Shown: positions 22,264-62,211, counted from the stretch's first letter. The stretch is DNA of 64,000 nt from an uncultured Actinomycetes bacterium (GCA_963845355.1 CAWJRV010000005.1:80495-144494), one strand, 5' to 3'. Numbers and translations are program-made. The notes: generated from the sequence alone by a model not told the origin.

Positions 22264-25037
22264 ATGAAGCGCGCCTGGCTCGTTGCCTGCATCGCCGCTG
22301 GCCGCGTGGCGCCTGGCGGCCGTTGGGGCCCCTCCGGCTCAGGCCCTCGTGCCCGACGGCGGGCACGGCTGGTTCTGGCAGATGCCGCAGCCCGCGACCG
22401 GTCTGAGCGACGTCACGTTCGCGCGCCGGGCAGTACTGGGCGGTCGGCGTGGGCGGAACCATCCTGCACAGCACCGACGGCGGCGCTCACCTGGGCGGCG
22501 CAGCCGACCGGCTCCGACGCCGACCTCTGGTCGGTCAGCTTCGCCGACGCCCAGCACGGCTGGGTCGGTCGGCGCACGGCGCGGGAACCGGCGACGCCTG
22601 ATCCTCGCCACCACCAACGGCGGCGCCGCCTGGACCGACGAGACGCCGGGCGGCCTGACCGATTGGCTCACCAACGCGAGCTTCGTCGACGCCGCACACG
22701 GCTGGATCGGCACCAACGACGGCAAGGTCCTCAAGACCAGCGACGGCGGCGGCACCTGGCAGACGCTGAAGCGTCGCCGCCGCCTACAAGGGCTACCTCA
22801 CGGTCGACTTCGTCGATGCCACGCACGGCTGGGCGGGCGGCACCAGCGGCCGCATCTGGACGACGGTCGACGGCGGCGCGACCTGGACGGCCCTCCCGCG
22901 CGGCTCTGACGGCCCGGACATGCGGTCGTCGTCCAGCTCGATTTCGTCGATCGCCGCGACGGTTGGGTGCTCGGCCAAGACACTATGGCGACTCCGTGGT
23001 CATGACGACCAACGACGGCGGGCGCTTCTGGCGCCCGGTACCGACTGGGGACCGTCCACGACCGGCATCTACGCCGCGAGCGCGGGCGACGTCTGGCTCG
23101 TCGGCCAGGACTGGATGGACTACGACGATTCTCAGGCTCCGACCATCTGAAGCACTCGAGTGACGGCGGGTTCACTCTGGAAGACGTCGACGATCAGCGC
23201 GCCGGCCATGCCCTACGCGATCGCGGCGGGCGGCGGTTCGGTCTGTGCCGTGGGCGACGGCATCCTCGTCTCCGGCGACGATGGGGCGACCTGGCAGTCG
23301 GGCAGCTCGGGCCAGCAGTACTGGTTCGCCGGAGCCGACGCGGTCTCGGCGACCGACGTGTGGGCGGTCGACTCCGCCGGCGCCCTGTTGCACAGCACCG
23401 ACGGCGTGCGCTTCGCCGAGCAGCCCGATCTGGTCCGGGGGGCGATCGCGCTCATGGGGGTCAGCTTCCCCAACGCCAGCGACGGCTGGGTGGTGGGAGC
23501 CAGCGACCAGTGGGGTGACGGCAGCGTGATCCTCCACACGAGCGACAGCGGCGCGACCTGGGGTCCGCAGCAGTCCAACCTGGGCGGCGAGCTCGACGGC
23601 GTCGATTTCATCGACGCGCACACCGGCTGGGCGATCAGCGACGACAACTCCGGGTGGAACGCGGGGGCCAACCTCACGATGCAGCACACGACCGACGGCG
23701 GCGTCACCTGGATCCCCAGTTCGTCGCCGGCAACACCGCGCTCAGCGCGGTCGACTTCGTCGACGCCTCGACGGGTTGGGCGGCCGGCGGTGTGTATTCG
23801 GAGGGCAATCCCGCGGCGGCGGTCTTCGCCTCGACCGACGGCGGCTTCACCTGGACCAGGGAGAAGCTGCCCAAGGGCGCTCCCGCCATCACCGGGCTGC
23901 AGTTCCTGAACAAAAGCGACGGCTGGGCCGTCGGCACGAGCTGGACGCTGGACGACGCCACCGACACCGCCACGTCGGATCAGGGCTGGGTGCTGCACAC
24001 CACCGACGGTGGCGCGACGTGGCAGCTCGTGTCCGATCTCGACGACAGCCTGGCCACCACGGTGCACTTCAGCGACTCGAGCAACGGCTGGGTCGGAGGC
24101 CTGAACGGCGTCTATGCCACCACCGACGGCGGCTCGACCTGGCAGCGTGTCGCCGCGGGCGACGGGGTCGAAGCCATCGCCGCCACCGACGCCCAGCACG
24201 TGTGGGCGTTCGGCGACGGCTTTCTCGTGTCGACGCTCGACTCGAACGGCGACTCCGCCGCTCCCGTGACCCTCGATCCACACAACGACTCCGTCTGGCG
24301 CAACAAGACGGTGACCATCGGCTTGCTGGCCAACGACGTCGGCGGCTCGGGCGTCGCCGGAACGCAGACCAGCCTCGACGGCGGACGCCTGGCAGCCCGG
24401 CGCGTCCATCGTTGTGCCGGCCTACGCGGACCACCACTTCGACGGCACGCACACGATCCTCTACCGCTCCGCCGACAACGCCGGAAACCAGGAGCAGACG
24501 GAGAGTCTGACGGTCGGCGTCGACACGCTGGGCCCTGCCTGCTCCGTCCCCCGCACGAGCGTCGTCGACGCCGGTAGCCGCGGGCCGCTGTTCTTTATGG
24601 CGACCGACGAGAACAGCGGGGTCAAAGAGGCGACGATCACGATCGTCGGGGCTCACGGTCGCGTGCTGCGCAGATTCGTCGAGCACGCGGGCGACTGGGG
24701 CGCCTCCCCGTCGCCCTCCTACTACTGGACGCGGTTCAACTGCACGCTGAAGCCCGGCACCTACCGCGTCGAGGTGCATGCCGACGACTGGGCGGGCAAC
24801 CGCCAGGTCACGGTGGGTCACGGTGTGCTGCGGGTGGTACGCCGCGGGGCTCCCGAGTTCTCGCCACCGTGGTGGCCATCCGGCTTGCCCTCCGAGTCCA
24901 TGGGTACCCGCCTGAACCACGGTCTGCGGCCGGCCTGGCTGTTGCGCCAGCCCGGCAGCCCGACCGTCGTGCACGCGGCGTCGCATCGCGGCGCCTGGAA
25001 GGCCCAGCACTGGCCGGAGGTCCGCGCGAAGCGCTAA
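22264..25037 (+). pseudogene. Ycf48/BNR-type beta-propeller secreted protein (possibly a double propeller) with the same C-terminal module, at least eight frameshifts
   Basis: Repeated blades of the form …HGW.VG..GTIL.TTDGGATW… spread over all three + frames. The C-terminal part reads …HTILYRSADNAGNQE…ATITIVGAHGRVLRRF…GTYRVEVHADDWAGN. Confidence 0.65.
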
Positions 25038-25219
25038 GGACTCGCAGGCGACATCGGCGGTCCGAGGCCGCCGATGTCGCCTGATCAGTCGACGCGAGGA
25101 TGCCTGCCGGGACGCCCACCCCCTAACGAAGTGCCCGCTTTGGCCGATGACTTGCAGGGAGATCGCACATCACCTGCGAGGTCCGCTCCTTTCGCGAGTG
25201 GCCCGGCCCGGAGACGGTC

Positions 25220-26554
25220 ATGAGATATTGCCCCAACTGCGAGCTCTCCATCGGTGAGACGGCGACGTTCTGCGCGACCTGTGGCGCGCGGGTGCCGAAT
25301 GTAGCCGCGACCCGGCAGTCACCCTCGCCGCCTGCGTCCGCCGCAGCGGTACCGGACGCGCCGCCGTCTGACTCCGTCAGCCCGGTCGCTCCACCGCCGG
25401 TGGCGGTCCTCATCTCCCCTCAGGGGGTGCTCCTGGCAGCTCCTCCCGTGGCGGCCGGCACTGCGCCGGTCGTGGCTGCGGCCGCGCCGGCAACGGCGTT
25501 TCCGGCCGCGCCGGCGACCGCGTTTCCGGCCGCGCCGGCCATGGCGTTTCCGGCCGCGTCGAGCAGGACGCCGGCGATGCCGACCGCGACGGGCGGTGCG
25601 ACCGCGATGCCGACCGCAACGGGCAGTGTGACCGCAGAGCCGCTTTTGCCACCGCCGCCGGCGCCCGCTTCCGAGGCGCCTCCAGCGCCGGCAGCCGAGC
25701 CCGCGCCGGTCGCTTGCAGGATCTGTGGACGCACGGCGTCCGCCGTCGAGAACGAGGGTGTGTGCCACGCGTGTCGGGCCGACCTGGACCTCTTTGTGGC
25801 GGCCGGCGCGTCGGAATCTGCCGGAGTGAGCCTCGCGGGCAACGTGTCGACCGGCGGTCGTCAACGCCTCACCGCAAGCAATGCGATCTACTCGGCGCTG
25901 GCCGACGACGACACGTGCCCCGAGTGCCGCGCCATGGATGGTCGCGAGACAAGCGACATCGCCGCCGCCGCAGGTTGGGCACCGAACCGGCAGTGCCGCA
26001 GCCCGCAAGGTTGCCGCTGCGCGGTCTTTTACGAGCACGAGAGCCTGGCCGCCGGCGAAGAGCCCGCCTTCATAGACTATGTCGCCGCTCATGGCCTGCA
26101 CGTCACGGCTCCCGCCGTGAGCGCCTTCCGCGGCGAGACGCACAGGCTCAGGCAGACCGCCGCTCACCTCGACGATGCCTCGCGGTCGCTCGCCGAGGCG
26201 CGCACGTTGGAGAAAGTCGACCCGCAACAGGCGGTCGCACGGTATCGTCGAGCTATCGACAGCCTCCTGGCCTGCGGCCAAGAGCCTCTCGACGAGCGCT
26301 GCGTCAGGCGCGATCTGCCCCTGGCGTTCAACCGGCTCACCCTGGTGCTCAAGGCTCTGGGCCGTCGCAGCGAGGCTCTCGACGAGATCGAGCGCGCGGT
26401 GGCAACGGGGATCCTCGAGCGCGATGACTGCGGCAGGAAGGCAGATCGGGACGCCCTCCTGAACCGCCGTCGACGGCTGCAAGAGGGCCTGACCGCGACC
26501 GACTCTGCCCCCCGCCACCGTCTGACCGCGACCGCCGCCGCCAGGCAGCGCTAG
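25220..26554 (+). CDS. Zinc-ribbon protein with Pro/Ala-rich repeat linker and a phage-Mu-F/SPP1-gp7-like Cys motif
   Basis: N-terminal double zinc ribbon YCPNCELSIGETATFCATCGARV. Tandem-repeat linker. Second ribbon CRICGRT…CHACR. Then TCPECRAMDGRETS…GWAPNRQCRSPQGCRCAVFYEHE, resembling the MuF C…C…dG…HPnCRC motif. Helical C terminus. Confidence 0.6.
   Translation: MRYCPNCELSIGETATFCATCGARVPNVAATRQSPSPPASAAAVPDAPPSDSVSPVAPPPVAVLISPQGVLLAAPPVAAGTAPVVAAAAPATAFPAAPATAFPAAPAMAFPAASSRTPAMPTATGGATAMPTATGSVTAEPLLPPPPAPASEAPPAPAAEPAPVACRICGRTASAVENEGVCHACRADLDLFVAAGASESAGVSLAGNVSTGGRQRLTASNAIYSALADDDTCPECRAMDGRETSDIAAAAGWAPNRQCRSPQGCRCAVFYEHESLAAGEEPAFIDYVAAHGLHVTAPAVSAFRGETHRLRQTAAHLDDASRSLAEARTLEKVDPQQAVARYRRAIDSLLACGQEPLDERCVRRDLPLAFNRLTLVLKALGRRSEALDEIERAVATGILERDDCGRKADRDALLNRRRRLQEGLTATDSAPRHRLTATAAARQR
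25484..25555. repeat. 3 x 24-bp in-frame tandem repeat encoding (APATAFPA)x3; adjacent 2 x 30-bp repeat at 25575..25634
   Basis: Units gcgccggcaacggcgtttccggcc / gcgccggcgaccgcgtttccggcc / gcgccggccatggcgtttccggcc. Confidence 0.8.
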
Positions 26555-26609: not shown

Positions 26610-27641
26610 GTGGCGATGAAACAAGGCGACACCCGATTCGCGCCCATGCCCGGGGAGTCGATTGCCCAGGACGGCACGACCGCACCCCTGCAGCTCGTCG
26701 CCACCGCGGTCGGCGCCCCCGTGTTCATCGTGCCGTTCCTCGATCGTTTCTACGAGCCCGCCGAAACGGCGCTGGTCGCCGCCCTGGCCGAGCGACCGCT
26801 GGGCGTCACGGCCCTTTGGCGCCTGCTTGCTCCCAAAGCGCCACGCCGCGAGATGCGCGCCTTTCTGGAGCGCGCCAACAGGCGCGGCGTGGTCGAGCAC
26901 GCGACGCGCGACCGCTACGGCCTGGTCTCGTTCCACGACCGCTTCGTCGTGTGGATCTTTTTCGAAGGCTGGCTCGACCTGCCCGTCGAGGTTCGCGAGG
27001 AGCTCCGCGAATGGGAGCTAGCGGCCTACGTCGAGACGGCTCGGCCTTACGTCGAGGCGGCTCAGGCCGGCCGGCCCATCGACCCTATCGAAAACCAGAC
27101 CTACCTGCTGTTCGACGAGGTCGAAGCCATACTGCGCGCTCAGGAGCACATCTACCTCTACCCCTGTGACTGTCGCGCGATCATGGGCCGCTGCCACAAG
27201 CCGACCCTGAACTGCCTGCGCTTCGAGGGCCCCCACGGCCACTATCACGATCTCGGCTGGGAGATCTCGACCGAACGCGCGATCGAGGTCGCGCGCGAGG
27301 CCAATCGGGCGGGCCTCATGCAGACCGGCGGCATGCCCGGCGCGCCCATGCGGGGTATCTGCACCTGTTGTCCCGACTGCTGCTTTCCGCATCTCGCGGG
27401 GGAGCGTCTCGACGCCGGCAAGCTGTGGCCGCTCACGCGCTTCGTGGCGCGTATCGAGACTGCCTCGTGTGACGGCTGCAACCGCTGCGTGGTGCGCTGC
27501 CCGTTCGACGCCATCATCCGCTCGGCGGGACCAACGAAAGGGGAGCTCGTCGTGCCGGCCGTCGATGCCACGTTGTGTCGCGGTTGCGGCCTGTGCGCGA
27601 CGGGCTGTCACAGCGCGGCGATCGTCATGGACCCCGTGTGA
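26610..27641 (+). CDS. Multi-cluster Fe-S protein with C-terminal 2x[4Fe-4S] ferredoxin domain
   Basis: Cys clusters YPCDCRAIMGRCHKPTLNC and CTCCPDCC. Two canonical ferredoxin motifs: CDGCNRCVVRCP and CRGCGLCATGCH. Confidence 0.7.
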   Translation: MAMKQGDTRFAPMPGESIAQDGTTAPLQLVATAVGAPVFIVPFLDRFYEPAETALVAALAERPLGVTALWRLLAPKAPRREMRAFLERANRRGVVEHATRDRYGLVSFHDRFVVWIFFEGWLDLPVEVREELREWELAAYVETARPYVEAAQAGRPIDPIENQTYLLFDEVEAILRAQEHIYLYPCDCRAIMGRCHKPTLNCLRFEGPHGHYHDLGWEISTERAIEVAREANRAGLMQTGGMPGAPMRGICTCCPDCCFPHLAGERLDAGKLWPLTRFVARIETASCDGCNRCVVRCPFDAIIRSAGPTKGELVVPAVDATLCRGCGLCATGCHSAAIVMDPV

Positions 27642-27666
27642 GACGCCCAGGAACGTCCGGGGCGAT

Positions 27667-29010
27667 CTAGGAGACCGTCACCAGCGTGCCGATGGGGTCG
27701 TACCGGAACACCACGGCGGCTGCCGAGTAGGGCAGCTCGACGCAGCCCAGGCTCTGCGGCCAGCCGTAGGAACCGCGCAGGAAGCCGTGCACCGCGTCGC
27801 CACCGTTGAAGTAGGCCACATAGGGCACGCCGGGGTCGCTGTAGTGGCTGCCGTCGGGGTTGGTGCCGCTCATCGTGGTCGACAGGTAGCGAGCGTAGAC
27901 CGGGAAGCTGCCGAGCGCTGTGGGGCGCGCGGCGATGCCGGTGTTGGCGGCGCTGCTGTAGATGATGCGGCCGTCGCGCCAGACATGGAGCGCTTCGGGC
28001 AGCGCGGTCGAGACCTCGATGTAGTCGTAGACCCGCTTGGTGGCCTTGTGGCGCGAGGTCGCCTTGAGCAGCGCGGTCCAGACCTCGCGACCCACGGTCC
28101 CGTCGGTCGAGAGCTTGTGGTCGGACTCGAACTCCATGACCGCTCCCTTGATCAGCACGGTGTAGTTTCCGCGGTGCCACAATGCGCGCAGCGAGGCCGG
28201 GATGTGCTTGTACCGCCAGGAGAAGGCTCCTTTCAGCGGCGCGAGCGAGATCAGATCGAGGTTGTGGGGCTCGCGGGCGAGCGCCGACACGTACTGCTTC
28301 GTGGTGGCCGAGCCGGCGGCGGAGCCCGACGCGGGCGCGCTCACGGCCAGCCGAAAGCGCAGCGGAAGGTAGCCGAGCTCGGCAAGAAGCTGCTGCAGGC
28401 GCGCGGTCGACGAGGGACCGCCGACCGTGAAGTACAGGGTGTGACTCCTGGCCAGCGTGCCGCCGTCGGCGCCGCGCACGCCGCTGGGGCCTCCGGGAAC
28501 GCCCAGATGCACCTTGGCATAGACGGGCAGATGACCGGTGGGCACGAACAGCAGCGTCGTGCCGCCGGCGACGATCTTCCAGTGGCCCGGCATCTTCGGC
28601 ACCAGGACGGGGTCACGCGTAGTGGCGGCAAGCGCCGCCGAGAAGACGACCCTAACGCCCGCGGCCGGCGAGACGTTCACAGCTTTGCCGGCCGGCGAGA
28701 TCGACACGATCTTCAGGGGGCTCGGCGACGCAGTCGGAGTCGGCGTGCCCGTGTCGGTCGAGGTGGGTGTCGGTGTCGGCGTGCCGGTGTCGGTAGAGCT
28801 GGGCGTCGGGGTCGGCGTGCCGGTGTCGGTCGGCGTGGCCTTCTGGGCAGGCGAGCCGGCCACCGCCGGGCTTGCCGGCGGTGTCGGTGTCGAGGCCGAC
28901 GCACGCGAGGCGGTCATCGCCGGCGACACCACGAGAAAGCCCGCGGCCAGCGTTGCGACGGCGACGATCCCCACGGGCAGCAGCCCGATCCTGGCCATGA
29001 TCTTCTTCAC
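27667..29010 (-). CDS. L,D-transpeptidase (YkuD family) with Thr/Pro-rich repeat linker
   Basis: C-terminal catalytic region VHGFLRGSYGWPQSLGCVELP. N-terminal signal/TM. TDTGTPTPTP repeats. Confidence 0.75.
   Translation of the reverse strand: MKKIMARIGLLPVGIVAVATLAAGFLVVSPAMTASRASASTPTPPASPAVAGSPAQKATPTDTGTPTPTPSSTDTGTPTPTPTSTDTGTPTPTASPSPLKIVSISPAGKAVNVSPAAGVRVVFSAALAATTRDPVLVPKMPGHWKIVAGGTTLLFVPTGHLPVYAKVHLGVPGGPSGVRGADGGTLARSHTLYFTVGGPSSTARLQQLLAELGYLPLRFRLAVSAPASGSAAGSATTKQYVSALAREPHNLDLISLAPLKGAFSWRYKHIPASLRALWHRGNYTVLIKGAVMEFESDHKLSTDGTVGREVWTALLKATSRHKATKRVYDYIEVSTALPEALHVWRDGRIIYSSAANTGIAARPTALGSFPVYARYLSTTMSGTNPDGSHYSDPGVPYVAYFNGGDAVHGFLRGSYGWPQSLGCVELPYSAAAVVFRYDPIGTLVTVS
28733..28840. 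repeat. 3 x 36-bp tandem repeat inside the L,D-transpeptidase gene (encodes TDTGTPTPTPxS units on the minus strand)
   Basis: Units gtcggagtcggcgtgcccgtgtcggtcgaggtgggt / gtcggtgtcggcgtgccggtgtcggtagagctgggc / gtcggggtcggcgtgccggtgtcggtcggcgtggcc. Confidence 0.8.
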
Positions 29011-29208
29011 GAGGCTTCCTCCGGTCCGGGGCCCTGCGCGGGCCTCACAGGCGGCCGAGCGACCCTTCGCCACACACGCCTGTTCTCATTGATCCTGCAA
29101 TCGTCGTGCAATCGTACGCGCCACGCCCGAAATCGCCAACCGTCGACTCGCGGCGACCGTCAGACCATGGCGATGCCACGGCCGGGGTCGTTTCTCCGTC
29201 GGCCGTCT

Positions 29209-30657
29209 TCACGCGGCCGGGCCGGTGGCGAGCTGCACGGTCGTCGAGTGTCGCCGACCCGACTGGTCGGTCCATCCGATCGTGACGTGATCACCAGGCT
29301 TGTGAGTGCCCAGCAGGGTGCTCAGGGTCGTCGGCGAGTCGACGGTGTGGCCGTCGACCGAAGTGATCACGTCGTAGGCGACCAGGCCGGCGTGCGCGGC
29401 GGGTGTGCCGGGGACCACATCGGCAATGATCACACCCGAGGCCGTCGCTCCGTAGCTGAAGCTGCCGGGGTTCCCCATCGCGACGCCGAGAAACGCGGTG
29501 GGTCCGATGTGCACGGTGGCCGAGGCGCCACCGGCCTCGATCTGCGAGACGAGAGCCATGGCGGTGTCCACGGGGATGGCGAAGCCCTGCGTGCCGTTCG
29601 TCTGGAACGAGTAGCCGCCCGAAGCCGCCGTGTCGATCCCGATGACCTCGCCGGCGGTGTCGACGAGGGGGCCACCGGAGTCACCCGGCCGGATGTCGGC
29701 GTTGGTCTCGATGAGGCCGGTGAGGCGCTCAGAGGTGCTGTCGCCGGCGTCGCTGGCGACGATCTGCTGATCGAGGGCCACGATACTGCCGCCGGCCGCG
29801 CTGGGCGTGCCGCCGGTGCCGCCGGCGTTGCCGATCGCGACCACGCCCGCGCCGACGGCCGCCGTCGACGAATCGCCGATCCTGGCCGTCTTGAGCCCGG
29901 AAGCTCCGCTCAGCTGGATGACGGCGATGTCCTTGCTGCGGTCATAACCGACCACGGTCGCCTGGTAGGTGCGTCCGTTACCGACGTCCGTCGCGCTGAT
30001 CGAGGTCGCGCCGGTGACCACATGGTTGTTGGTGAGCACCTCGCCGTTCGAGGTGAGGACGATGCCGGTGGCGGCCGCCTGGCCGTTGTGTTCGTAACCC
30101 AGTGTGACGTTGATGTCGACGAGGGCCGGGTCGACCGACGAGGCGATCGAGGTCACGTCGGTGGGCGCGCCCGAAGCCGAGCTCGACGAGGAGTCGCTCG
30201 AACCGGAGCCGCCCGAGCTCGAGCCACCGGAACCGAACGGCGAGCCGCCCGACCCATTCTGGCTCGAGCCGGCGGTCGGCCCGCCCTGAGTGGTCGTCGA
30301 GGCGGTCGTCCGCCAGAAGCCGTTGCTGATCGCGACGCCGAGGAACGCGGCCGCCGCCACCAGCAGCGTCACCACGGCGAGGCGAGCCAGGCGTCTGCGA
30401 GGCCGCGGCGGACGGCCCTGGGGCCCGTGCGGGTAGCCGGAAGGGGGTGGGACCGGAGGATTTGGACCTGCGCCGGAGGCCCCCTGGGGGTAGTACCCGG
30501 CGTTCGGCAGGGGCGGCTGCTCCCAGCCGGTCGCGGGGGGGCTCCAGGGCGTGTTCGGCGGGCTCGCCGCGGCGTGGCCGGGCTGCTCGTTCATGGTGAT
30601 TCTCCGGTCGGGTTCGGCGCCTTGTGCGGACCGGTCCGGCGACGCTGGATCAGACAT
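29209..30657 (-). CDS. HtrA/DegP-family trypsin-like serine protease (S1C) with PDZ domain and Pro-rich cytoplasmic N terminus
   Basis: Catalytic triad context: LTNNHVV (His), DIAVIQL (Asp), GDSGGPLVD (Ser). A C-terminal PDZ domain. One TM. GGAGG RBS 5 nt from the ATG. Confidence 0.9.
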   Translation of the reverse strand: MSDPASPDRSAQGAEPDRRITMNEQPGHAAASPPNTPWSPPATGWEQPPLPNAGYYPQGASGAGPNPPVPPPSGYPHGPQGRPPRPRRRLARLAVVTLLVAAAAFLGVAISNGFWRTTASTTTQGGPTAGSSQNGSGGSPFGSGGSSSGGSGSSDSSSSSASGAPTDVTSIASSVDPALVDINVTLGYEHNGQAAATGIVLTSNGEVLTNNHVVTGATSISATDVGNGRTYQATVVGYDRSKDIAVIQLSGASGLKTARIGDSSTAAVGAGVVAIGNAGGTGGTPSAAGGSIVALDQQIVASDAGDSTSERLTGLIETNADIRPGDSGGPLVDTAGEVIGIDTAASGGYSFQTNGTQGFAIPVDTAMALVSQIEAGGASATVHIGPTAFLGVAMGNPGSFSYGATASGVIIADVVPGTPAAHAGLVAYDVITSVDGHTVDSPTTLSTLLGTHKPGDHVTIGWTDQSGRRHSTTVQLATGPAA

Positions 30658-30883
30658 GGTGCCTCCGCATGCTCACTGCTTGTTGAAGTGTTCCCCGCTG
30701 CGAGCGATCGTTGCGCGCCCTGGGCGCACTTCCCGTTGTCACGTTTGTCAGGTGAGTTGTAGCCCGCGGTGCTGAAGACAGTCTGAGGGCTGCCTTGGAG
30801 TTTCCTGAGAGTCACGGCGGAACGACGGCAGGAGAACGGCGCCATCGGTCGAACAGCTCGCCGGGACGCACTTTGGCGGGGGT

Positions 30884-41044: not shown

Positions 41045-42610
41045 TTGCGGAACTGCTGGAGGGCTTACGTGAGACGCTGGAAGACGGCGCTGTCACCGAT
41101 CGTGCCGGCGCTGTGCCTCGCGAGTGTGCCAGCCCTGGCCGGCGCGGCCGGTGTCCCCCCGGCGTGGGCGAGCTCGCCGCTCGCCGTATCGACACTCGCC
41201 GCCTCGACTCCGACCTCTGCGGGTGTGGGCCTGCCGGTGCCGTCGCCGGGCTGGGTGCTGCCGGCGGGGTTCGTGCAGCCGGGCGGTCCCCTGCGGCCGA
41301 GCGGCGCCTTGCAGCCGGGCGGGGTAGCGCAGCCTCTCGGCCGGTCGTTGTCGCAGCGCGGCACGCGCAGCGAGTCGCCCAACTGGTCGGGCTACGACGT
41401 GACCGGCGGGCCGTTCACGAGCGTCACGGCGACCTGGACCCAGCCGCGCGTGCGGCCCAGCGCCGACTTCACCGATGCCGCCTTCTGGGTGGGGCTCGAC
41501 GGCGACAGCGCCGACCCTTCGGTCCCTTCGCAGACCGTCGAGCAGATCGGGACCGAAGGCTACACGCTGCAGGGTGTGCACTACGACGCTTGGTATGAGA
41601 TGTATCCCGACTACGCCCACTACATCACCTTCGGTAAGGGCAAGGCCAAACACCTCATGGGCATCCGCCCCGGCGACGTCATCACGGCGAGCGTCACCTG
41701 GAACGGCACGTCCAGTTTCACGCTGTCGCTTGTCGACAAAACGACCGGCCGCTCGTTTTCGACCGTCCAGCCGATCGCCAAGGGTGCCCCCCAACCGGAG
41801 CGTTCGTCGGCCGAGGTGATCGCCGAGGCGCCCTCGCTGAGCGACGGCTCATTGCTCTCGGTAGCCAACTTCGGGCTGGTGCGGTTTCGTGGCTGCGCCT
41901 TCGACGACCAGCCGATCGGAGCGTTCGACTGGTCTCGCATCGACATGGTCTCCTGGGACTCTCACGCCACCGAGGTCGCTACCTCGGCGCTGAGTCCCGA
42001 CGGCACCGCCTTCGACGGTACCACCGATTTTCGGCGGCCGGTGACGACGGTCGCCCATACTCCTGCCTGGGTCAGCCAACCCGTGACGCTGCGTTTCAAG
42101 GCCTCCGACAACCCGGGCGGCACAGGCGTCGCCTACACCCAGTACTCACTCGACGGCCAGGCGACCTGGACGAACGGCACGTCGGTCACACTGCCGGCCC
42201 CAGGCGACCATTCCGCCGACGGCCCGGCGACGGTCTGGTACCGTTCAGCCGACAAGGCCGGCAACCTCGAAAGGGCGCACCGTTACGTCGTGCACATCGA
42301 CACCCGCAGGCCCACGGCGGTGGCGCAGTGGCCGGCAGCCACGACGCGCGGCGGCCGGGCGCTTCTGCGCTACTTCGTCGGCGATCCCCGGCCGGGCAGC
42401 CCGACGGCTACCGTGACGATCAGGATCCGCGCCAAGGGCGGAGCCCTCGTGAAGAAGATCGTGCTGGCCGGCAGGCCGGTCGACACAAGTCTCTCCTGCG
42501 GGTTCGCCTGCTCGTTCGCCAGGGGCGTCTACCGGGTCGTCGTGTCGGCCACCGACACCGCCGGCAACCCTTCGACGGCGTCGGCGACCACCACGCTGAC
42601 CGTGCGCTGA
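41045..42610 (+). CDS. Secreted peptidase-G1 (glutamic peptidase/eqolisin)-like protein with Ig-like plus DPRPGSPTATVTI C-terminal module (intact)
   Basis: Signal peptide. SPNWSGYDVTGGPFTSVTATWTQP, AAFWVGLDGDS, VEQIGTEGY, YDAWYEMYP. Then GVAYTQYSLDGQATWTNG…DHSADGPATVWYRSADKAGNLE…IDTRRP, and DPRPGSPTATVTIRIRAKGGALVKKIVL…GVYRVVVSATDTAGN. Confidence 0.75.
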   Translation: MRNCWRAYVRRWKTALSPIVPALCLASVPALAGAAGVPPAWASSPLAVSTLAASTPTSAGVGLPVPSPGWVLPAGFVQPGGPLRPSGALQPGGVAQPLGRSLSQRGTRSESPNWSGYDVTGGPFTSVTATWTQPRVRPSADFTDAAFWVGLDGDSADPSVPSQTVEQIGTEGYTLQGVHYDAWYEMYPDYAHYITFGKGKAKHLMGIRPGDVITASVTWNGTSSFTLSLVDKTTGRSFSTVQPIAKGAPQPERSSAEVIAEAPSLSDGSLLSVANFGLVRFRGCAFDDQPIGAFDWSRIDMVSWDSHATEVATSALSPDGTAFDGTTDFRRPVTTVAHTPAWVSQPVTLRFKASDNPGGTGVAYTQYSLDGQATWTNGTSVTLPAPGDHSADGPATVWYRSADKAGNLERAHRYVVHIDTRRPTAVAQWPAATTRGGRALLRYFVGDPRPGSPTATVTIRIRAKGGALVKKIVLAGRPVDTSLSCGFACSFARGVYRVVVSATDTAGNPSTASATTTLTVR

Positions 42611-60612: not shown

Positions 60613-62211
60613 GTGAAGCACGCTCCTCAGGTCTTGCTCATCGTCGCCGCGCTGACCGTCGCCATGAGCGCCGCCGTCGCCGCGGGCGCCGTCGGCGTAG
60701 CCGGCGCGGCGAGCGCGGCGAGCGCCACCGCCGCGGCGAGCGCCACCGCCGCGCGGGTCGGCTGGACGGCCCGCCAGGCAAGTTCCGACGCCCCCCTGCT
60801 GTCTGTCGCCACGACCGATGTGGCACACGCCTGGGCGGTCGGCCCCGGCCCGACCATCGTGGCCACCACCGACGGTGGTGCGACGTGGGCCCCCGAGGCG
60901 CCTGCGACCACGAACGACCTCTATGGCGTCACCTTCGCCGACGCCACCGACGGCTGGGCCGTCGGACCCGCCGGCACCGTGGTCGCCACCACCGACGGCG
61001 GCGCCGACTGGACGCCACAGAGCGTCCCGACATCGCAGACCCTGATCAGCGCGGCCAGCCGCGGTCAGAACGCCTGGGTGGTGGGGGCCGGCGGCACGAT
61101 CCTGGCCACCACCGACGGCGGCGCGACCTGGTCGGCACAGAGCGCGCCGCGCGGGCAGGACCTCTTCTCTGTGACGTTCGCCGACCCAGGCCACGGCTGG
61201 GCCGTGGGCGACGACGGCACCATCCTGGCCACCACCGACGGCGGCGCCGTCTGGACCGCTCAAAAGTCGCCGACCGCGGACTATCTGAACGGCGTGGCCT
61301 GCCAGGGTACGACACGCGCCTGGGCGGTCGGCGAGAAAGGGGTCATCCTGGCCACCAGCGACGGCGGTGCGCGCTGGCTGGTCCGTCGGGCGCCCCACGC
61401 CCACGCGCCCGATCTCTACACCGTCGACTTCGCCTCGAGGAGTCACGGCTGGGCGGTCGGACTCGGCGGCCTGATCCTGGCGACGGTCGACTACGGCAGA
61501 ACGTGGCGCGCGCAGCGCTCCCCCTCGGACCAGGTCTTCACCTCAGTGGACTTCACCGACCCGCTTCACGGCTTCGTCACTGAGATCACCGGCGCGGTGC
61601 TGACCACCACGACGGGGGGATGGTCCGACAAGCTGCCGCCGACCGTCTCCGCCACCGGTGTCGCGGGCTGGCATGGGCGCCCGTTCCATGTCCGGCTGCA
61701 GGCGGCCGACGGGCAGGGTTCTGGCGTGGCGACGGTGCAGTATTCGTTCGACCATCGCGAGACCTGGACGACGGGCGTCACGTTCGCGGTGGGGGCGCCG
61801 GCCGATCATAGCAGCGACGGTAGCCACGAATTCTGGGTGCGCGCCGTAGACAACGCCGGCAACGTCGCGCCCACCCGCGCCTTTCATGTGCGCATCGACA
61901 CGCGCCGCCCGGTGGCCAAGGCTCTGTGGGCGGGCCGGGCGGTCAGCGGTCAGCCGGCGGCTCTGCTCTGCGCCGTGAGCGATCCGCGCCCCGGCAGCCC
62001 GACGGCAACGGTCACGATCACCGTGCGGACGGCGTCCGGCCGGACGGTGAAGATCCTCAGGTTCGCCCGGCGCCCGGTGGGCCAGAAGCTGACCTGCCGC
62101 TTCCGCTGCACGCTGGCCGCGGGGCACTATCGCTTCTTCGTGTCGGCGACCGACGCGGCCGGCAATCGGGCCGCAGTCGCGGCCGCCAATAGCCTCACAG
62201 TCCTGCCGTAG
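60613..62211 (+). CDS. Secreted Ycf48/BNR-type beta-propeller protein with Ig-like plus DPRPGSPTATVTI C-terminal module (intact)
   Basis: Signal peptide. Seven or eight blades …HAWAVGPGPTIVATTDGGATW…. Then GVATVQYSFDHRETWTTG…DHSSDGSHEFWVRAVDNAGNVA…IDTRRP, and DPRPGSPTATVTITVRTASGRTVKIL…GHYRFFVSATDAAGN. GGGAGGGA RBS before the GTG. Confidence 0.75.
   Translation: MKHAPQVLLIVAALTVAMSAAVAAGAVGVAGAASAASATAAASATAARVGWTARQASSDAPLLSVATTDVAHAWAVGPGPTIVATTDGGATWAPEAPATTNDLYGVTFADATDGWAVGPAGTVVATTDGGADWTPQSVPTSQTLISAASRGQNAWVVGAGGTILATTDGGATWSAQSAPRGQDLFSVTFADPGHGWAVGDDGTILATTDGGAVWTAQKSPTADYLNGVACQGTTRAWAVGEKGVILATSDGGARWLVRRAPHAHAPDLYTVDFASRSHGWAVGLGGLILATVDYGRTWRAQRSPSDQVFTSVDFTDPLHGFVTEITGAVLTTTTGGWSDKLPPTVSATGVAGWHGRPFHVRLQAADGQGSGVATVQYSFDHRETWTTGVTFAVGAPADHSSDGSHEFWVRAVDNAGNVAPTRAFHVRIDTRRPVAKALWAGRAVSGQPAALLCAVSDPRPGSPTATVTITVRTASGRTVKILRFARRPVGQKLTCRFRCTLAAGHYRFFVSATDAAGNRAAVAAANSLTVLP

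Follow-up and report, generated by a model that had tools for sequence, protein, structure and literature searches.

A fragment of the phage MuF domain flanked by a double zinc ribbon and by a TPR-like tail in a chromosomally encoded protein of Thermoleophilia-like Actinomycetota

The locus and the encoded protein

The window, that is, the whole 64-kb stretch of DNA that was analysed (G+C ∼70%), contains at 25220-26554 an ORF preceded by ABC-transporter genes and a gene for a BNR/Big_13 protein, and followed by genes for a ferredoxin-domain protein, a YkuD transpeptidase, HtrA, an RsbW-like kinase, and DUF1003. The zinc ribbons, the (APATAFPA)x3 linker, the Cys motif, and the TPR-like helical tail that the original prediction had placed in this ORF are all present as described. 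They follow one another as a double zinc ribbon split by the linker, a Cys-rich module related to the C-terminal part of phage MuF proteins (MuF-C module; see below), and the helical tail. The individual features are as follows.

25048-25083, plus strand: GC-rich hairpin (RNA fold −42 kcal/mol, z = −6.1)
25210-25213, plus strand: Shine-Dalgarno-like GGAG (direct sequence inspection)
25220-26554, plus strand: ORF of 444 aa, complete (full-length collinear alignment with 38 homologues; coding-like GC by codon position)
25229-25291, plus strand: zinc ribbon 1, residues 4-24, with C4, C7, C18, and C21 (Pfam Zn_Ribbon_1, E 2.2e-4; DZR, E 2.8e-3)
25298-25705, plus strand: Pro/Ala-rich low-complexity linker, residues ∼27-162 (Tandem Repeats Finder; alignment gaps)
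25479-25558, plus strand: repeat encoding APATAFPA x3, a 24-bp unit in 3.3 copies with 91% matches (Tandem Repeats Finder)
25574-25635, plus strand: second repeat, encoding AMPTATG.. x2, a 30-bp unit in 2.1 copies (Tandem Repeats Finder)
25715-25774, plus strand: zinc ribbon 2, residues 166-185, with C166, C169, C182, and C185, followed by a helix (Pfam DZR_2, E 1.3e-4; AF2 model)
25859-26050, plus strand: MuF-C module, residues 214-277 (hhalign, hmmsearch, partial PF04233 match, Foldseek, tblastn)
26060-26509, plus strand: TPR-like all-helical tail, residues ∼281-430 (AF2 helices with pLDDT >90; weak TPR_2/MIT matches in some members)
26610-27641, plus strand: gene for a 343-aa protein with a C-terminal 2x[4Fe-4S] ferredoxin domain (Pfam Fer4), co-directional and 56 bp past the ORF

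GC3 of the ORF is ∼0.80, and GC2 drops to 0.49-0.59 across its C-terminal half. The public gene call for exactly this sequence (P0001) comprises 264 aa and starts inside ribbon 2, that is, it is truncated; the 444-aa version is favoured because the GGAG lies 6 nt ahead of the ATG at 25220. The hairpin, whose stability was reached by none of 200 shuffled sequences, is located directly 3′ of the TAA (25035-25037) that ends the upstream BNR/Big_13 gene and is likely to constitute the transcript boundary dividing the two genes. As it lacks a U-tract, a simple terminator scan makes no call at this position.

The N-terminal part of the protein shares with double zinc ribbon proteins (DZR, PF12773; Zn_Ribbon_1, PF13240) a pair of motifs of the form CxxC-x10-CxxC … CxxC-x12-CxxC. 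In an alignment of 39 homologous sequences, all eight ribbon Cys are invariant, and the motif of ribbon 1, LSIGETATFCATCG, is nearly so. The length of the linker, by contrast, ranges between orthologues from ∼5 to more than 200 residues (∼135 in the protein studied here). In short homologues, the ribbons are only ∼5 residues apart, and Pfam scores the two together as a DZR domain (best E 1.4e-8). Every one of the 39 family members matches DZR at E ≤ 1, and the present protein scores 18.2 bits, below the cutoff of 27.3, because the linker splits its ribbons. As the ribbons adjoin in short orthologues, the ∼135-residue Pro/Ala stretch appears to be a lineage-specific insertion within a double zinc ribbon. 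DZR itself is generic and lacks a defined function; the present copy differs from it by this split.

Downstream of the MuF-C module follows a helical domain of ∼165 residues, in which the motifs LDE..VR.DLP.AFNRL and DCGRKADR are invariant. An AF2 model of residues 160-444, based on 50 sequences, attained a pLDDT of 89.5 and a pTM of 0.79, which suggests that this region forms a single well-defined fold; it is composed of the ribbon, a helix, the two-stranded module with its CxxC helix, and five or six long helices. When this model was compared with BFVD using Foldseek, only weak TPR/SNAP-like matches resulted, which were not significant and were uninformative as to the core. PHROGs contributed only zinc-ribbon families of unknown function, with no match for core plus tail, and no toxin family was found for the tail in Pfam, NCBIfam, PHROGs, or PADLOC.

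Relationship of the module to Phage_Mu_F

According to the original prediction, the Cys core resembles the Phage_Mu_F/SPP1 gp7 head-morphogenesis proteins. The segment on which this was based, TCPECRAMDG...PNRQCRSPQGCRCAVF, comprises residues 232-270 and lies within a module consisting of a β-strand, a CxxC knuckle/helix, DG, a loop, PN..C, G-CRC, and a second β-strand. The search against PF04233 that had been proposed as a check gave an answer only in part when conducted directly: the protein matched with E 0.0024 and 19.0 bits, below the gathering cutoff of 29.6, and the alignment covered residues 206-269 of the protein and positions 50-111 of the 112 in the profile. All 39 family members matched PF04233 in this manner (best E 2e-4), and none of them attained the gathering score by itself. 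TIGR01641 scored 12.7 bits (cutoff 39.65), and the NCBIfam search of the protein returned nothing above threshold. By Pfam's own criteria, the protein is thus not a member of Phage_Mu_F; what it holds is a homologous fragment.

These scores below the curated thresholds are what speaks for a chance resemblance, that is, for the segment being a generic Cys4 zinc finger. A profile of the core was built from residues 196-310 of the family and used for an exhaustive hmmsearch against 1.84 billion representative proteins, among which 243 matched at E ≤ 1e-3. Beyond the family itself, the matching regions were the C-terminal ends of proteins of ∼240-280 aa, of ∼740 aa, or longer. Scanning of 79 matches revealed PF04233 in 45 (best E 2.9e-9) and Portal_Mu in 26; a few carried 2H, ART, or other polyvalent-type domains. 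One Portal_Mu protein (P0066; E 1e-44 for that domain) ends in the module and matched the core profile with E 6e-18. When the family was aligned by hhalign with 28 stand-alone phage-type MuF proteins, the probability in this profile-profile comparison was 99.3% (E 2e-20), with 45% identity across the 64 aligned columns, which correspond to residues 214-277.

The resemblance is also not confined to Cys. The spacing CxxC-x22-C-x5-CxC is common to the family and the phage MuF proteins, and the overall motif shared by both can be written as YSA..D-x3-CxxC-x3-DG … PNP.C-x5-CRC. The five module Cys (C233, C236, C259, C265, and C267) are invariant in the family, as are Y224, S225, D229, D240, G241, P255, and R266, which are common to the recovered phage MuF proteins as well. 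Y224 and S225 are nearly invariant in the phage MuF alignments, and C233, C236, D240, G241, P255, C259, C265, R266, and C267 are invariant or nearly so in the phage matches. The non-Cys residues in common are thus those of YSA..D, DG, and PNP, and the Arg of CRC. With 70% mean column identity, the module is, furthermore, the best-conserved part of the protein.

The AF2 model of the core (pLDDT 80) was compared with BFVD using Foldseek, and the named proteins among the top 50 matches were nearly all head-morphogenesis, minor-capsid, GpF-like, or portal proteins. Individual matches had E-values of only 0.04-0.3, because the module is short, and TM scores of 0.25-0.38 over a short aligned stretch. 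Against the PDB, Foldseek of the core gave nothing below E 2, hence no solved template, and sequence searches with the whole-family and core profiles gave zinc-ribbon/coiled-coil noise only. Neither type of search found a solved MuF structure in the PDB, and nothing on such a structure or on a role for zinc emerged when the literature was searched. The predicted fold, strand - Zn knuckle - strand, appears alike in both groups. Taken together, the profile statistics, the shared non-Cys residues and spacing, and a fold search returning almost exclusively MuF establish the MuF-C module as a true homologue of the C-terminal core of Phage_Mu_F and refute the generic zinc finger, which we consider hardly credible.

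Homology does not extend to the whole domain. The hhalign alignment is limited to the 64 columns mentioned above, and when the tail and the ribbon-2 segment were compared with the N-terminal half of phage MuF, the probability was <1%, which also ruled out a circular permutation or a hidden N-terminal half. As judged from these alignments, all that the protein has of the MuF domain is its C-terminal 64 residues, and the N-terminal, helical half is absent. Thus, the predicted likeness to Phage_Mu_F stands as homology (hmmsearch, E 6e-18; hhalign, 99.3%), restricted to this C-terminal part and to Pfam scores below threshold. The position of the module differs, too. In the aligned phage MuF proteins, the chain mostly ends a few to ∼10 residues past CRC..VY (a few are longer), whereas in the present protein, the module is flanked by the double ribbon and the TPR-like tail.

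Closest to the module are the C-termini of Mu-type portal-MuF fusions encoded by soil phages. Such fusions from uncultured soil phages (P0066 and, from IMG/VR, L017, L018, and L021) share 47-55% identity with it over ∼55-64 residues, as well as the signatures WxPNPxC and CRC.V.YE. The copies closest to it in IMG/VR, with 50-55% identity, form the ends of Portal_Mu genes that lie within head modules. There, unlike in the present protein, the module constitutes the extreme C-terminus of a portal protein of 750-950 aa encoded in a head-gene cluster.

Family, selection, and chromosomal setting

With residues 160-444 as the query, a word-indexed search retrieved 61 homologues of 49-100% identity. 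Almost none had a functional name, and those with a named source all stem from Actinomycetota/Thermoleophilia MAGs. When one genome per GTDB species was scanned, the family was present in only 11 species representatives, all of them Actinomycetota/Thermoleophilia soil MAGs. The 39-sequence alignment is collinear and contains 61 invariant positions, among them all 13 Cys of the ribbons and the core; a further Cys in the tail brings the conserved Cys of the protein to 14. Compared with six orthologues, dN/dS ranged between 0.12 and 0.52 for the protein and between 0.12 and 0.42 for the module, and the gene is, thus, under purifying selection. In some pairs, dN/dS is 0.3-0.5, which is looser than in typical housekeeping genes. 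As public databases leave the family unannotated, a new domain-architecture entry could be considered for it.

In most of the related loci, the order BNR - target - (OCD/SDH/Fer4) - YkuD - HtrA (with "target" denoting the gene under study) is kept, that is, the gene occupies the same chromosomal slot; exceptions are L004, which lacks the BNR gene, and L009, which has none of these neighbours. The stretch between the gene and YkuD is variable and contains Fer4 alone, OCD and Fer4, SDH_alpha and Fer4, or OCD and SDH_alpha without Fer4.

This setting bears on whether the gene is a degraded prophage remnant or encodes a MuF-type polymorphic toxin with C-terminal toxin cargo. Either would be in keeping with what is known of bacterial muf genes, 96% of which are located in prophages or what remains of them (Jamet et al, 2017; PMC5576092), and of MuF domains, which often occur with C-terminal toxin domains (PMC5576092; PMC3482391). 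In the 64-kb window, no portal, terminase, capsid, or integrase gene is located near the ORF, the neighbours being cellular there as in the related loci. When 401 ORFs from six related viral contigs were compared with the window using tblastn, only the MuF-like portal ends matched, and only within the ORF, at 25877-26065. The absence of phage genes nearby, which had been claimed before, was thus confirmed, as was the notion of a domesticated or repurposed copy outside a prophage, given the context conserved in most loci. Toxin cargo, which had been considered as well, was not borne out: the tail is TPR-like and without a toxin or defence profile, and no conserved immunity-like neighbour exists, because the gene downstream varies between Fer4, OCD, and SDH_alpha.

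Compared with MuF polymorphic toxins (PMC5576092) and polyvalent proteins (PMC5512222), the present protein is alike in combining MuF-derived sequence with an unrelated C-terminal domain. Those proteins contain the whole MuF domain, including the N-terminal half that toxins retain, are encoded by prophages, and carry enzymatic toxin/effector domains, usually accompanied by immunity genes; the present one has a MuF fragment only, a TPR-like solenoid as its C-terminal domain, and a chromosomal context. With an intact ORF under purifying selection, synteny across most related loci, the N-terminal half absent, and a TPR-like tail, the remnant/toxin reading is largely refuted and very improbable; the gene is not left over from a prophage, and its product is not a MuF toxin. 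Its family belongs to the rare remainder of bacterial muf outside prophages or their remnants, and is represented there by a fragment only.

A survey of related loci for conservation of the gene with the downstream Fe-S gene, which the original prediction had called for, argued against a fixed pair. Fer4 was found downstream in 9 of 12 related loci (it is absent in L011, L014, and L015), and in five of these nine, OCD or SDH_alpha genes sit between the two. The variability of this slot means that the Fe-S link is not obligatory, and an obligatory functional coupling was rejected; the protein encoded at 26610-27641 is a neighbour, not an established partner. The same observations weaken the view that the protein is a redox or metal sensor, in which the 14 conserved Cys would sense oxidative/thiol stress or zinc availability together with the adjacent Fe-S protein, and zinc release would alter partner binding. 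The density and invariance of Cys would fit such a sensor, as would the 2x[4Fe-4S] gene, which follows after only 56 bp in the window and is also nearby in several relatives, and the gene for the RsbW-like kinase ∼4 kb downstream. Against it stand not only the three loci in which the Fe-S gene is missing from the slot and the five in which it is separated, but also the lack of a ZAS-type HxxxCxxC motif in the protein and of profile similarity to known redox sensors in Pfam and NCBIfam. A sensor is, thus, an unlikely explanation.

Possible role and origin of the protein

The explanation we favour, and which we regard as probable rather than secure, is that the C-terminal zinc module of phage MuF has found a new use in a cytoplasmic multi-zinc/TPR binding protein that is lineage-specific and belongs to Thermoleophilia-like Actinomycetota. 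A 64-residue Cys-rich module would have become detached from the rest of MuF and joined on one side to a double zinc ribbon and on the other to a TPR-like helical domain. As its Cys are invariant, the protein is predicted to bind up to three zinc ions, of which two would be bound by the double ribbon and the third by the module, via CxxC and two of C259, C265, and C267.

What such a protein does may be approached by analogy. The biochemical role of MuF proteins is undefined, even though they are among the most widespread head proteins of tailed phages; the sole MuF protein to have been studied, gp7 of SPP1, binds the portal and has been cited as binding DNA (PMC5576092). By analogy with SPP1 gp7, the present protein could be a non-enzymatic binding adaptor, the zinc head of which (ribbons and MuF-C module) would contact nucleic acid or protein, while the TPR-like tail might recruit a protein partner; both this mechanism and the nature of the ligand are inference only.

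The same analogy permits a role in defence. The host copy of the module might bind the portal or another head-assembly partner of infecting phages with Mu-type portals and thereby poison head assembly or DNA packaging, with the TPR tail as a platform for oligomerisation or effectors. In favour of such a decoy, the sequences closest to the module (47-55% identity) are the C-termini of portal-MuF fusions from phages whose soil hosts are similarly high in GC, the portal is where MuF proteins act (PMC5576092), and the gene has no housekeeping annotation. Its position is, however, fixed and syntenic in most loci rather than in a variable defence island, and PADLOC gave no match at E ≤ 0.01 for the protein, two of its homologues, and two neighbours. 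Moreover, selection is purifying, and the module, instead of showing arms-race diversification, is the best-conserved part (70% column identity, dN/dS 0.12-0.42). We therefore consider an anti-phage decoy quite improbable, and its more specific form, in which a domesticated head-protein fragment would bind the portal or the packaged-DNA end and block head maturation, distinctly so. If true, it would add a new, constitutively syntenic class of anti-phage proteins in Thermoleophilia, and would identify the 64-residue Cys module as the portal- or DNA-contacting unit of MuF.

Under the favoured reading, that of a reused zinc module in a binding protein, the novelty lies in a new architecture and context for a fragment of a known phage domain. 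The family shows the Cys-rich C-terminal 64 residues of MuF to be a separable evolutionary unit, which can persist under selection when the remainder of the domain is missing and no virion is involved, and which provides a small, tractable construct for probing the conserved MuF motif with respect to binding of zinc, DNA, or the portal. It is also a further clear example of a structural domain of phages that has been put to use in a cellular protein. Its practical importance is limited, the lineage being narrow and uncultured.

As MuF is ubiquitous in tailed phages and the bacterial family is found in one narrow lineage, the module was probably transferred from phage to host, presumably by a single capture in the ancestor of the lineage. 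The direction of transfer is not proven, and the tree of the module, which comprises 63 columns, cannot be rooted. In this unrooted tree, the family was monophyletic in 189 of 200 NJ bootstraps, and it grouped weakly (68 of 200) with two divergent proteins consisting of a zinc ribbon and the module (P0065 and P0073). The contigs encoding the divergent zinc-ribbon-plus-module relatives P0063, P0064, and P0065, and that of the stand-alone phage-type protein P0074, are 1.6-3.3 kb in length.

Start of the target gene and state of the gene upstream

The target protein is matched identically by only one database entry, the public gene call P0001, which starts at a GTG within zinc ribbon 2 and contains only half of that ribbon, with neither zinc ribbon 1 nor the linker.

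25760–26554, forward strand: public gene call P0001, 264 aa

The alignment of homologues and a GGAG at 25210 support the start that yields 444 residues over the one giving 264. The target's reading frame is unbroken, unlike that of its upstream neighbour.

22313–25037, forward strand: BNR/PSII_BNR/Big_13 gene

In three of the loci carrying target relatives (L005, L006 and L008), this upstream gene is a single unbroken frame of ~920 aa; the copy in the window is broken across frames 2/3/2/3, with switches near 22770–22981, 23714–23729 and 24381–24385. The frame-split copy is either a pseudogene or the product of indel errors in a long-read assembly. Two further regions with BNR/Big_13-type repeats, at 60760–62154 and 42068–42568 (both forward strand), are paralogous to the upstream protein, with 30–36% identity to it.

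Gene order downstream of the target

26610–27641, forward strand: gene for a 343-aa Fe-S protein with a 2x[4Fe-4S] ferredoxin domain at the C-terminus
27667–29073, reverse strand: YkuD L,D-transpeptidase gene, strand reversed relative to related loci
27469–30762, forward strand: 1097-aa Arg/Gly-rich ORF, running in antisense across YkuD and HtrA

The Fe-S protein is conserved far above the target, with 70–95% identity across the lineage. Its N-terminal 270 residues, for which no Pfam match was found, contain the Cys clusters CDCRAIMGRCHKPTLNC and CTCCPDCC. The slot between the target and YkuD is variable at L001, L003 and L011–L015, where genes for an ornithine cyclodeaminase-like protein (OCD_Mu_crystall) and a serine dehydratase alpha (SDH_alpha) are, depending on the species, inserted or exchanged with the Fe-S gene.

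The YkuD gene is co-directional with the target in all related loci that have it (12 of 12) and lies on the opposite strand in the window, where the orientation of the flanking Fe-S and HtrA genes is unchanged. The reversal stems either from an inversion the size of the gene or from misassembly; near the ends of the gene, only a weak inverted repeat of 25 nt (72% complementary) was found. The antisense ORF appears to be a shadow ORF of the kind typical of high-GC DNA, not a gene.

Short proteins consisting of the MuF-C module

Among the matches of the core-only profile were many metagenomic proteins of 60–115 aa comprising the MuF-C module and little else (P0069, P0085, P0086, P0090, P0100, P0107–P0113 and P0117). 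These proteins may represent either fragmentary genes or mini-modules that stand alone; in some, the SPQGCRC signature of the target's bacterial family is present.
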